DNA of 64,000 bases from Campylobacteraceae bacterium (GCA_016744535.1 JADGEE010000006.1:78-64077), one strand, 5' to 3'. Positions 39,974 through 50,577 are shown, counted from the stretch's first letter. Program-made: numbers and translations. Notes: generated from the sequence alone by a model not told the origin.

Positions 39974-40408
39974 CTATTTTTGATTTCTAATAGTATCAAT
40001 ATTTATGTTATTTACAATAGATACCAATGTGTTATCTATCTCCACTACTCTACTTACATCAATTAAATTATTTTCTCTAGTTCCAGTCTCCATAAATTCC
40101 ACTTCAGATTCATTTAAATGGACTATGTTTTCAATTGCATCAACAATTAGACCTAAAATATTATCATTATGTTTATAAATTAAAATTTTTGTTATTTCAT
40201 TTTTATACTCTTTAAAATTCAATACTCTTCTTAAATTTATAATTTCTATGGGTTGATTTTCATAAGTCATTATTCCATCTATATATATAGAACTATCTGA
40301 AACATTAGTTAAATCTTTTGATTCTATTATTCTTTGTACATTATCTAAATTAAAAGCGTAATAACCATCTTCTATTTTACAAATTATAAAATCAATCATT
40401 GCTAACAC
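39974..40408 (-). CDS. cheW: CheW-like coupling protein
   Basis: 144 aa, single CheW-like domain. Overlaps the cheA stop by 17 nt. Confidence 0.8.
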   Translation of the reverse strand: MLAMIDFIICKIEDGYYAFNLDNVQRIIESKDLTNVSDSSIYIDGIMTYENQPIEIINLRRVLNFKEYKNEITKILIYKHNDNILGLIVDAIENIVHLNESEVEFMETGTRENNLIDVSRVVEIDNTLVSIVNNINIDTIRNQK

Positions 40409-43097
40409 TCTCTAACTTATCTATTTTTATCTCTTCACTCAACTCTAATATTCCAATAGGATCAAGAACCATAATAATTTGCCCATTTCCAAGAAGTGCA
40501 GTTCCACTAATCAATGGATGATTTGCAAGCATTCCATCTAAAGGCTTTTGAACAACATCAAGTTGCCCTAAAAGTTCATTTACTACAATTGCTATTAAGT
40601 TATCTTTCACATTTAAAACAACAATTGAGAGAGGCTCATTCTTCAAGTTATCTATATTTAAAATTTCATTAATCATAATTAGAGGAATAACTTCTCCTCT
40701 AATATAAACAAAAGGTTCATTATTTAAATAAGTAATCTCATCTTTTTCAATTTTATCTGTTTCACTAACACTATCCATTGGAAAACCATAATGAATTGAA
40801 TTTAAAGATACATGAAGCAGAGTTGTAACTGCTAGTGAAACTGGAATTGCCATTGTAAGTTTTGTACCTTTTCCCATCTCACTGATTAAGGACACATCTC
40901 CACCAAAGCCTTCAATTGACCTTTTAACAACATCCATTCCAACTCCACGACCGCTAAATTCACTAATCTCTTCAACTGTTGAAAGCCCAGGTAGAAAAAT
41001 TAAATTAAGTTTTTCATTATCACTTAATTGTTCAATTTTCTCTATATCCATCAAATTTTTTTCTAAAACTTTATTTGTAACTACTTTAGAATCAATTCCT
41101 TTTCCATCATCGTGAATTTCAATAATAACTTTATCAGACTGTGGATAAGCTTTCATTAAGATGTGACCAGTCTCATCTTTACCAGTATCTTTTCTTGTTT
41201 CAGGAGATTCAACTCCGTGGTCAAGTGAATTTCTAACTATATGGATAAGTGGGTCTGCTAACATCTCAATCATATTTTTATCAAGTTTTGTATCTCCACC
41301 ATCTTGAGTTAATTTAACTTTTTTACCAAGTTTTTTAGATATTTCTCTAACAAGTTTTGGATATCTATCAAATACATAAGATATTGGTAACATTCTCATA
41401 GACATTATTAAATCTTGTAGTTGATTTGTTAATCTATCAATAAAAGAGTATTTTTCTAAAATTACTTTTCTAATTGCTTCAGCTTCAAGTTCAAATACAG
41501 ATTCTGCTAAATATGGAAGGGAATTTTTAGCCACTAAAAGTTCTCCTACAACACTCATTAAATGATCAATTGATTCTTGTTCAACTTTTACAACTTTACC
41601 AATAACATCTTTTTTTTCTGATTTTACTACTTTTACAGAAGTTTTTTGTTTTGTAGAAGTTTTTATTGTAGGAGTTGGTGTAACTATCTCCGTTTTTACA
41701 CTTTCAGTCTTAACTTCTGTTGATACTCCTAATACTTCATTAATTATATTTAATATTTCACTTTTATTTTCTAATGATTCATTAAAATCTTTACCCAATG
41801 TATTAAAACATTTTTTTGCTATAAATTTAGCTCTTTGGATTAAATCGGTATTATCATTATTCAAAAGTTGGTTTTTTTGTTGAATAAGTAACTCTTTTGC
41901 TACTTCTATATCTAAATCTGAAAAATTCTCATTAACTACTATTTCTTCTCTATTTTCACTTGCTTGTTCTATTTTATTTTCTTCTTTTTCTGAAATATCA
42001 TTTAAAGAGATAGAGGAATCATAATTAAATTTTTTTGCATCTTTTAAGGCATTAAAAAATTGACTTAATTTCGGTAAATCAGCATCTTCAATAGCATCAA
42101 TACTGTTTATTAATCTATTAATCATAATAGCTTGTTTTGAATTTTCATTCATAAGTGGTAACGACTCGAGTAGAGTATTCTTTAAATTTATACTGTCTTT
42201 TGCAATTGATAATTCAATTGATTTCTTTACTAAATCTTTTATAAAATCTATATTTTCAACTTCTCCAATATCAATAGATAAAAACGATGATATATCAAGT
42301 GGAAAAAATACTATATCGTCCAAAAAGTTATATAGTGCCTCTTCTATATCTTCATAAGTAGCCTCTACAATAACACTTATATGCAAATAAAGATTTAAGC
42401 CGTCCTCATCGTTAAAGCCACTTAAAATATTTTTGGCACTATTAGTTGAGTAGTGATTACTAATTGATAAAACCTTTTCTTCTAAAAGTGAAAGTGCATA
42501 AATAGGGTCATTCCCAAACATCATACAATCTTTATCTAAATCAAATAGTAATAAATAAACTCTTTTTTCATTAAAATTTTCTTGATTAATAGATATTTTA
42601 TTAAAAGGTAATTTAGAGTTGTAACTCTTTAGAGTTAAAGTCTTAAAATTAATTAACTCTGAGGGGTCTGTTAGAATTGTCATAGGAGATTCCCACTGAA
42701 TTTCAGTATCATCATTTTCAAGACCCATCTGTTTACATAGATACTCTACAATTTTACTCTCTATAGCTTCATCTGCTTCGACTACATCACCACTCTCTTC
42801 AGCTGCTTCAACTAAATTTAAAACTTCATCAAAAGCATCATATAAAGCACCTAACATTCCCTCTTTATACTCTAACTTTTTAGCTCTTAGCAAATCTAAA
42901 AGATCTTCTGCTTTATGAGTTATATTTTTTACAGCTTCAAATCCAACAATTCCTGAACCTCCTTTGAGTGTATGGGCAGCTCTAAAAATTGAATTTAGTA
43001 ACTCATCATCACCATTTCCTAACTCTTCAAGATTTTGTTCTATAAATTTTAAATTTTCCCTCGCCTCTTGTAAAAACTGCTCTAATAGTGGATTCAT
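40392..43097 (-). CDS. cheA: chemotaxis histidine kinase CheA (with long unassigned insert)
   Basis: 901 aa. Hpt (FRAAHTLKGGSG), dimerisation/HATPase (HIVRNSLDHG, DDGKGI, GRGVGMDVV), C-terminal CheW-like domain. Confidence 0.9.
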   Translation of the reverse strand: MNPLLEQFLQEARENLKFIEQNLEELGNGDDELLNSIFRAAHTLKGGSGIVGFEAVKNITHKAEDLLDLLRAKKLEYKEGMLGALYDAFDEVLNLVEAAEESGDVVEADEAIESKIVEYLCKQMGLENDDTEIQWESPMTILTDPSELINFKTLTLKSYNSKLPFNKISINQENFNEKRVYLLLFDLDKDCMMFGNDPIYALSLLEEKVLSISNHYSTNSAKNILSGFNDEDGLNLYLHISVIVEATYEDIEEALYNFLDDIVFFPLDISSFLSIDIGEVENIDFIKDLVKKSIELSIAKDSINLKNTLLESLPLMNENSKQAIMINRLINSIDAIEDADLPKLSQFFNALKDAKKFNYDSSISLNDISEKEENKIEQASENREEIVVNENFSDLDIEVAKELLIQQKNQLLNNDNTDLIQRAKFIAKKCFNTLGKDFNESLENKSEILNIINEVLGVSTEVKTESVKTEIVTPTPTIKTSTKQKTSVKVVKSEKKDVIGKVVKVEQESIDHLMSVVGELLVAKNSLPYLAESVFELEAEAIRKVILEKYSFIDRLTNQLQDLIMSMRMLPISYVFDRYPKLVREISKKLGKKVKLTQDGGDTKLDKNMIEMLADPLIHIVRNSLDHGVESPETRKDTGKDETGHILMKAYPQSDKVIIEIHDDGKGIDSKVVTNKVLEKNLMDIEKIEQLSDNEKLNLIFLPGLSTVEEISEFSGRGVGMDVVKRSIEGFGGDVSLISEMGKGTKLTMAIPVSLAVTTLLHVSLNSIHYGFPMDSVSETDKIEKDEITYLNNEPFVYIRGEVIPLIMINEILNIDNLKNEPLSIVVLNVKDNLIAIVVNELLGQLDVVQKPLDGMLANHPLISGTALLGNGQIIMVLDPIGILELSEEIKIDKLESVSND

Positions 43098-43107
43098 TTC
43101 ATACCTT

Positions 43108-50134: not shown

Positions 50135-50145
50135 ATCCTCACCTT

Positions 50146-50577
50146 TTACTTTAATGTTTTATATAGTTCTTCAGCTTTTTTAACCTCATCTCTTTGAGGT
50201 TTCACTCTTATTGAGACATAAGAGATTTTACCATTTTTATCAACATTTCTTAAAACTGTTGCATAAACCCAGTAATATCCCCCACCTTTTATTGCGTTTT
50301 TTACATAACCTGTCCAAAAACCTTTATTTTGAACATCATTCCAGAGACTCTTAAATGCAGCTCTTGGCATTTCAGGGTGTCTTACAATATTATGAGGTTG
50401 CCCTAAAAGCTCCTCTTGAGTATAACCTGCAACTTTTGCAAATGATTTACTAACATAAGTAATAATACCTTTCTCATCTGTTTCAGACAAGAGGTATAAG
50501 TCATCATATAACACTTCACCATCATCAAGGAATGTTAATCCTTCTTTATCCATCTCTTTGACTCCTTTAAAATACAT
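50146..50577 (-). CDS. stand-alone Aer/CetB-like PAS domain protein
   Basis: 143 aa. [32 protein letters not shown]...YYWVYATV matches the FAD-type Aer PAS signature. Confidence 0.8.

Follow-up and report, generated by a model that had tools for sequence, protein, structure and literature searches.

The F9 class of chemosensory pathways carries two components unique to it, a receptor with a double signalling domain (DosM) and a protein of three CheW domains (CheW3), within a canonical gene order written M-W-B-.-R-Y-A (PMC9321776; PMC7534058). Cluster I of Vibrio cholerae belongs to this class and forms purely cytoplasmic, membrane-free double-layered arrays, in which two baseplates made of the concatenated triple CheW (VC1402) and CheA are spanned by DosM (VC1403) (PMC7534058). 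Sulfurimonas gotlandica GD1 is listed as 'F3, F7, F9 [DosMW3B.RY.YAW1]', and the metagenome-assembled genome (MAG) of Sulfuricurvum sp. 17-40-25 likewise (PMC9321776, Table S6). In this work, we analysed a 64,000-nucleotide (nt) stretch of DNA from a Campylobacteraceae bacterium (GCA_016744535.1 JADGEE010000006.1:78-64077), hereafter called the window, with a guanine-plus-cytosine (GC) content of ~27%, focusing on a chemosensory operon of 11 genes on its minus strand (39974-50577). Our results indicate that this is very probably a complete F9-class chemosensory operon of the V. cholerae cluster I type, in a variant of the Sulfurimonadaceae (Campylobacterota). While the F9 class and the gene order of this lineage were already known, less charted are a receiver-linked protein family, represented here by a protein that we call X, and a layout in which a PAS gene comes first.

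Gene content and class of the operon

The string tabulated for S. gotlandica corresponds to the window operon from its second gene on, its two dots being a gene for a HEAT-repeat protein and the gene for X; PAS, HEAT and X go unnamed in the published table (PMC9321776, Table S6). At the S. gotlandica locus, the same 11 genes stand in the same order, the leading PAS gene included, and in a gene-order computation on 40 GTDB loci of Sulfurimonadaceae, about 38 agreed with it; these loci had been collected with a narrow alignment of X whose pattern, Q[HY]QDIISQ, limits their taxonomic reach. The order M-W-B-(gene)-R-Y-A is present in the window, in agreement with the published orders and with two further loci (L004 and L006; retrieved loci bear L numbers throughout), and CheA is 48-52% identical to, and syntenic with, its counterpart in the S. 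gotlandica cluster assigned to F9 in PMC9321776. Gene content was established from Pfam and NCBIfam searches and from public gene calls with precomputed Pfam annotation for a 116-kb metagenome scaffold (ENA ERZ28566751, BORC21-1 scaffold_29) to which the DosM and CheA proteins match exactly; the 11 consecutive open reading frames (ORFs), in transcription order and with lengths in amino acids (aa), are the following:

50146..50577, minus strand: gene 1, PAS protein of 143 aa, Aer/CetB-type, stand-alone, predicted to bind flavin adenine dinucleotide (FAD)
48236..50134, minus strand: gene 2, DosM-type soluble methyl-accepting chemotaxis protein (MCP) of 632 aa, several MCPsignal stretches (Pfam)
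46801..48255, minus strand: gene 3, CheW3, three CheW domains, 484 aa from the first ATG
45739..46797, minus strand: gene 4, CheB methylesterase of 352 aa, receiver domain N-terminal
45113..45730, minus strand: gene 5, HEAT_2 protein of 205 aa, PBS-type HEAT repeats
44281..45108, minus strand: gene 6, CheR methyltransferase of 275 aa
43885..44259, minus strand: gene 7, CheY 'Ya', receiver of 124 aa
43481..43885, minus strand: gene 8, protein X of 134 aa, no family match
43108..43470, minus strand: gene 9, CheY 'Yb', receiver of 120 aa
40392..43097, minus strand: gene 10, CheA of 901 aa, F9-type, with Hpt, dimerisation, ATPase and CheW domains
39974..40408, minus strand: gene 11, CheW 'W1', single CheW domain, 144 aa from a GTG start

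These ORF calls and the Pfam and NCBIfam matches bear out the coordinates and the domain list of the original prediction, which had been made from the sequence alone. Gene callers place the start of CheW3 at 48225, 10 codons downstream of the first ATG (474 aa), and that of W1 at 40399 (141 aa); with these starts, the spacing in transcription order is 11, 10, 3, 8, 4 and 21 nt, a 1-nt overlap, 10 and 10 nt, and an 8-nt overlap, so that the packing described earlier, with gaps of at most 21 nt or overlaps, is seen here as a largest gap of 21 nt and two overlaps. No transmembrane segment was found in any of the 11 operon proteins.

The receptor shows the architecture expected of DosM, with GxGFAVV signalling tips at residues 186 and 486. 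The 300 residues from tip to tip and the 146 residues of the C-terminal arm correspond to ~21-22 heptads per arm, a count taken from these distances rather than from heptad-class hidden Markov models (HMMs) and compatible with the 44H class assigned to F9. Its two halves are internally duplicated (E = 1e-14), and an alignment at 37% identity (E = 1e-69) shows it to be collinear, both tips included, with the Methylosinus trichosporium F9 receptor. It has no transmembrane segment, no sensor domain and no C-terminal tethering pentapeptide; DosM homologs nearly always lack a sensor domain (PMC9321776). The nearest homologs all belong to Campylobacterales, chiefly Sulfurimonas and Sulfuricurvum. 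Gene 3 contains three CheW stretches (Pfam, E = 3.8e-75) and aligns at 93-96% coverage to the triple-CheW proteins of proteobacterial F9 clusters. In CheA, the ~400 aa between the Hpt and dimerisation domains (about residues 95-500) have no Pfam match and no recognisable P2, and a recent preprint describes, for F9 CheA, an extra structured region inserted between P2 and P3.

The original prediction had presented the operon as one of unusual accessory composition, in effect an undescribed set of genes outside the known pathway classes. It does depart strongly from the E. coli paradigm, no role has been assigned to its separate PAS, HEAT and X proteins, and for X there is no family match either. 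However, the odd parts are those of the published F9 signature, and orthologous operons exist in about 38 genomes; because DosM and CheW3 define F9 and the exact gene order had already been tabulated for two relatives within the family, the composition is ordinary for its class, and the earlier framing can hardly be upheld. The same applies to the triple CheW, which had been described as lacking a defined role, for CheW3 and CheA build the baseplates of the cytoplasmic array in V. cholerae (PMC7534058; PMC9321776).

Protein X and the two receivers

Both CheY proteins keep the receiver active-site residues D12, D13, D57, T/S87 and K109. Yb falls together with the one CheY that proteobacterial F9 clusters have and Ya forms a clade of its own, and Ya, X, PAS and W1 are missing from the proteobacterial F9 loci examined; judged by sequence, Yb is the ortholog of that one CheY and would be the ancestral CheY of F9, and Ya a lineage-specific extra CheY. 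The stop codon of Ya overlaps the start of X by 1 nt (TAATG), and the same overlap between receiver gene and X is seen in L052 and L053.

Relatives of X numbered 13 in a word-indexed search and 78 in an exhaustive profile search of 1.84 billion representatives; nearly all of the 78 are 120-140 aa long. Across 36 representatives, with identities down to 25%, Q56, D59, Q63 and G120 are invariant, and H17, Q58, Q64 and a terminal Phe are near-invariant, the motif reading QxQDxxxQQ. The AlphaFold model (AF2, pLDDT 85) places one helix at residues 2-42 and another at 49-119, followed by a disordered tail (about 120-134) that ends in a conserved EIEFF (x-I-E-F-F). In every context retrieved, X lies directly downstream of a receiver-domain gene: about 40 F9 loci, L055 as an F9 variant that has three CheYs, and three clusters containing CheD/CheB, in which the protein upstream of X is a 341-458-aa fusion containing a receiver domain (REC) and no second REC follows X. 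The REC fusions encoded beside X end in EDLLEFF, ADDLVFF and DDDLFFF, and a ~440-aa REC protein encoded downstream of related F9 operons ends in an invariant DDIFDF; these acidic/aromatic tails resemble the EIEFF of X, which suggests a common docking site. Separately, the REC fusions (L052 5698-6774; L054 3791-4816; L057 3676-5052) and the ~440-aa REC proteins (L008-L046) have in common an unannotated C-terminal domain of ~200 aa.

Gene 8 had been labelled CheZ-like in the original prediction. X matched no Pfam or NCBIfam model and no CheZ among PDB entries; its profile reached a best E of 0.16 against PDB, to unrelated proteins; hhalign against five CheZ sequences gave P = 0.057 (probability ~1%); Foldseek returned generic hairpins only; and no protein of CheZ length occurs among the 78 family representatives. 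Because every homology test failed, membership of X in the CheZ family (PF04344) was rejected on present evidence. What stands of the label is a resemblance in motif and architecture, homology to CheZ not being demonstrable. In CheZ, D143 and Q147 are catalytic, and the C-terminal peptide docks CheY. Like CheZ of E. coli and its relatives (PF04344), X combines a long hairpin of helices, the second of them with a D-x-x-x-Q, with a flexible linker and a conserved acidic/hydrophobic C-terminus ending in Phe, and its gene lies directly after cheY and is translationally coupled to it. The best hhalign register (P = 0.057) places D59 and Q63 of X on D143 and Q147 of CheZ; this D-x-x-x-Q lies on helix 49-119 of the confident hairpin model, and D59 and Q63, as a motif and putative catalytic pair, are invariant in 36/36 representatives. 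X differs in its length (134 aa vs ~214 aa), in the position of the motif, which is near the hairpin loop rather than mid-bundle, and in its tail (EIEFF vs DDLLxSLGF). A looser likeness is found with the helical-hairpin aspartyl-phosphate phosphatases of the Spo0E type.

Our leading hypothesis, which we hold tentatively and at not quite an even chance, is that X works like CheZ, as a functional analogue that would most likely dock a receiver through its acidic E-F-F tail and speed dephosphorylation through the invariant Asp/Gln motif. Two other roles were weighed against it. X could be a non-catalytic adaptor, its acidic/aromatic C-terminal peptide tethering a receiver protein or CheR/CheB to the array; the like tails of the X-associated REC proteins and of the ~440-aa REC protein (DDIFDF), which suggest a shared docking site, as well as the missing tethering pentapeptide of DosM, speak for this role, which we nevertheless find unlikely, given that it leaves unexplained why the polar Q56/D59/Q63 cluster, which lies on the helix surface, never varies and that the tail of X falls outside xWxxF, the pattern of receptor tethering pentapeptides. 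Alternatively, the gene order REC-X-REC, the presence of His17 in helix 1 of at least 90% of members, and a predicted hairpin that could dimerise into a four-helix bundle would suit a histidine phosphotransfer protein, that is, a dimeric hairpin bundle like Spo0B/ChpT relaying phosphoryl groups from Ya through X-His17 to Yb or in reverse. Such a relay is improbable: His17 gives way to Ile or Tyr in 2 of the 36 representatives, while none has lost D59 or Q63; no X member gives an Hpt or HisKA signal in Pfam; and the CheD-containing clusters have one long REC protein before X and no second REC after it. If X is indeed a phosphatase, as in our leading hypothesis, it would represent a new solution to chemosensory signal termination and would explain why F9 is listed as phosphatase-less.

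Proposed input, adaptation and output

Gene 1 aligns over its full length with the PAS crystal structure of E. coli Aer (PDB 8DIK, E = 4.9e-31) and also matches NifL PAS1 (2GJ3, E = 1e-9), NifL being its top NCBIfam match. The flavin-contact residues of Aer, namely H53, R57, M69, W70, N85 and R115 (PMC9668731), map to H62, R66, L78, W79, N94 and R124 of the window protein, all identical save for Leu in place of M69. This is the best conserved operon protein across relatives (67-90% identity) and the first gene in about 38 loci. By homology, gene 1 is a genuine Aer-type FAD PAS, and a redox/energy input from an Aer/CetB-type PAS at the head of the operon, as had been predicted, is plausible in view of the match to 8DIK and the conserved flavin contacts; because DosM has no sensor domain, the PAS protein is the obvious candidate for the input. 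In Campylobacter jejuni, CetB and CetA make up a bipartite energy-taxis receptor, CetB being a PAS-only protein encoded next to the transducer CetA.

Two observations on other potential sensors are recorded here. On a plasmid of Eleftheria terrae (L004 4247-6723), DosM is directly preceded by genes for a histidine kinase, a response regulator and a stand-alone protein of the BLUF (flavin blue-light) type, the latter being another small flavin sensor beside an F9 cluster. Within the window, ~10 kb from the operon, a 363-aa MCP (28413-29504, minus strand) has a C-terminal CZB zinc-binding domain, is TlpD-like and shows no obvious sensor or membrane region; it could serve the array as an additional cytoplasmic receptor.

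The HEAT protein resembles only generic PBS-type HEAT and alphaRep repeats. In Eleftheria terrae (a betaproteobacterium) and Methylosinus (an alphaproteobacterium), the F9 clusters likewise have, between cheB and cheR, a gene for an annotated HEAT-repeat protein of ~210 aa that is 29-30% identical to it, so that HEAT occupies the conserved but unnamed position in the canonical F9 order. The earlier statement that the HEAT protein has no defined role in canonical pathways is right in that its role is still unassigned, but not where it treats the protein as an oddity, since it is a conserved F9 element in other phyla. The sole HEAT precedent that we found in a che cluster is Cpc7 of Myxococcus xanthus, which is reported to bind CheY7 (Darnell et al. 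2014, via PMC11514114). In a comparison by description, Cpc7 is likewise a PBS-type HEAT-repeat protein encoded within a chemosensory cluster, and differs in being far larger (27 helices) and an output partner of CheY. The window protein, with its 205 aa and an invariable place between cheB and cheR, hints at adaptation rather than output.

By analogy with V. cholerae, DosM dimers would form extended rods, both ends of which are signalling tips, and these rods would bridge two baseplates composed of CheA, CheW3 and probably CheW1, giving a membrane-free double-layered cytoplasmic array. Since DosM has no sensor domain, the signal would most likely enter through the co-transcribed FAD-PAS, which would report the cellular redox or energy state in a bipartite arrangement as in CetB/CetA. 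CheR and CheB would provide methylation-based adaptation, with the HEAT protein acting as a protein-binding scaffold that, as a low-confidence guess, helps these enzymes to reach receptors devoid of a C-terminal tethering peptide. CheA would phosphorylate both CheYs, the presumably ancestral Yb and the lineage-specific Ya that would have arrived with X, and our best guess for the output is modulated flagellar behaviour in low oxygen or energy stress, beside the primary F3 pathway.

As a joint proposal, X may found an unrecognised receiver-phosphatase family (~78 sequence clusters with no Pfam/NCBIfam model), a miniature CheZ analogue, independently evolved or extremely diverged, that combines E-F-F docking with Asp/Gln action, and the stand-alone FAD-PAS and DosM may constitute a HAMP-less bipartite redox sensor supplying the input of the F9 array; we offer the two parts together as a tenable speculation rather than as our expectation. 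The input of an F9 array is testable, given that the cultured S. gotlandica GD1 has the family's version of the operon, headed by the highly conserved FAD-PAS gene.

Several points weigh against the interpretation developed above. The F9 membership was judged from signature architectures, from synteny and from orthologs in a published F9 cluster rather than from class-specific HMMs. X has no significant similarity to CheZ in sequence, profile or fold searches. Pfam finds no HAMP domain in DosM or in the other operon proteins, and the PAS domains of Aer and CetB signal via HAMP. In most relatives, moreover, the operon is succeeded by a small ORF and by genes for a ParA-like protein and a ~440-aa REC protein, none of which the window has. 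Finally, a flagellar output is uncertain because deletion of the F9 CheA in V. cholerae caused no motility phenotype in standard conditions (PMC7534058).

It is very improbable that the operon encodes the primary pathway of flagellar chemotaxis in this organism. By name, F9 is an 'F' (flagellar) class, flagellar genes are present in 97% of F9-bearing species (PMC9321776), and Ya is like canonical CheY near alpha4-beta5 (GWIVKPF); nonetheless, relatives have, besides F9, both F7 and F3, the latter being the flagellar system conserved in Campylobacterota, and most of their receptors are of the F3-type 40H class (PMC9321776). In addition, F9 arrays are purely cytoplasmic, the F9 CheA mutant of V. 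cholerae swims normally (PMC7534058), and no flagellar gene occurs in the whole 64-kb window, which extends the earlier remark that none lies near the operon. The original prediction had named, as an outcome that would speak against it, classification as the organism's only canonical flagellar pathway with ordinary components; the components are ordinary for F9 but not in the E. coli sense, and in relatives F9 is not the sole pathway because F3 and F7 are present alongside it (PMC9321776, Table S6).

Boundaries, neighbourhood and comparison with known systems

The operon is flanked by the following features:

50578..50856, strand not assigned: intergenic region and presumed promoter, 279 bp, 10% GC, divergent from argG
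50630..50638, minus strand: extended -10 candidate TGATATAAT, 61 nt upstream of the PAS start
50703..50722, strand not assigned: tandem repeat TATGTAATAT, perfect 2 x 10 nt
39927..39946, minus strand: intrinsic-terminator-like hairpin, 8-bp stem then AATGTTTTTT, between the convergent cheW and bamA

The 279-bp AT-rich divergent region, the repeat and the hairpin are thus all present in the sequence as originally described. The hairpin has a folding z-score of -2.3, and the minus strand shows no other terminator-like site from 39700 to 51000; one such site at the end and none within the operon support the idea of a self-contained compact unit. An Rfam scan of the operon and its flanks gave no match. 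The TGATATAAT candidate sits in a TTTTTATGATATAATTTTTTTAG block that is common to the window and its closest relative (L007), and this block may, from its sequence, be an extended -10-like element. A promoter consensus scan performed no better than shuffles (60 sites found vs 66.6 expected) and was rejected as evidence, being uninformative in this AT-rich DNA, and a sigma-28-like reading of the upstream motifs, made by eye, was dropped, as the spacing does not fit. None of the 38 related loci examined has the TATGTAATAT repeat in its upstream region, and two further 2-copy repeats occur within the same 400 bp; for both reasons, we regard the TATGTAATAT repeat as a chance product of 10%-GC DNA, unconserved and probably functionless, and reject it as a regulatory site. 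Many Sulfurimonas loci (L008-L046) have, ~35 nt upstream of the ribosome-binding site of the PAS gene, a TTTAGTTTT-N5-7-GTATGCTA-like element, which could be a promoter or an operator and is distinct from the TGATATAAT block that the window and L007 have in common.

Beyond CheW1, ~33 relatives (among L008-L046) have an ~85-aa ORF, a ParA/MipZ-like ATPase (68-94% identical among relatives) and the ~440-aa REC protein. Further coordinates recorded for these downstream genes are L002 20203-21899, L055 6934-7932 and L006 16126-17275, and a ParA-family gene also follows the Methylosinus F9 cluster. In Rhodobacter, PpfA partitions a chemosensory array; by analogy, the ParA-like module may be an array-partitioning one.

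Among the genomes compared, the closest one in GTDB (L007) is a 28%-GC sulfidic-cave MAG labelled 'Helicobacter cetorum', a label that is probably mis-assigned because its F9 operon and composition fit Sulfurimonadaceae-like relatives. The 28-kb plasmid pMO1 of Marinitoga okinawensis (L005, Thermotogota) carries a triple-CheW-like gene, two MCP genes, and genes for a GGDEF protein and an HD-domain phosphodiesterase of cyclic di-GMP; it lacks CheA, CheB and CheR, and may be a mobile partial F9-like set. Elsewhere in the window, a cyclic-nucleotide signalling cluster (3173-8703) comprises a REC-HATPase, a protein binding cyclic nucleotide monophosphates, a CHASE2-adenylate/guanylate cyclase and a stand-alone receiver. 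Two defence-type genes encode a GmrSD-family endonuclease (63-1280, minus strand) and a 1041-aa fused methylase/specificity protein (13698-16823, plus strand; N6_Mtase, Eco57I, Methylase_S), and a 1664-aa protein with a C-type lectin domain and bacterial TSP3 repeats (54209-59203, plus strand) is probably a surface or adhesion protein.

With regard to described systems, the closest counterpart is the F9 cluster of S. gotlandica GD1 and Sulfuricurvum sp. 17-40-25, with identical gene content and order, PAS, HEAT and X included, and with protein identities of 26-74% between S. gotlandica and the window; the S. gotlandica operon runs on past CheW1 into the small ORF, the ParA/MipZ-like ATPase and the ~440-aa REC protein, as in about 33 other relatives, whereas that of the window ends at CheW1 with a terminator. 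On the input side, the window PAS shares its fold and FAD-contact residues with E. coli Aer and, like CetB of C. jejuni, is a PAS-only protein encoded next to a presumed transducer; unlike Aer and CetA, that adjacent transducer, DosM, is soluble and free of transmembrane and HAMP modules. V. cholerae cluster I (DosM VC1403, CheW3 VC1402, CheA VC1397), compared by its published description, has in common with the window a soluble receptor with two signalling domains, a triple CheW, the core CheB-(gene)-CheR-CheY-CheA, a CheA with an inserted region and a PAS-containing input nearby, its arrays being induced in low oxygen. The window operon differs from it in that its PAS is a separate 143-aa protein, first in the operon and not a PAS-MCP, and in the addition of Ya, protein X and a terminal single-domain CheW.

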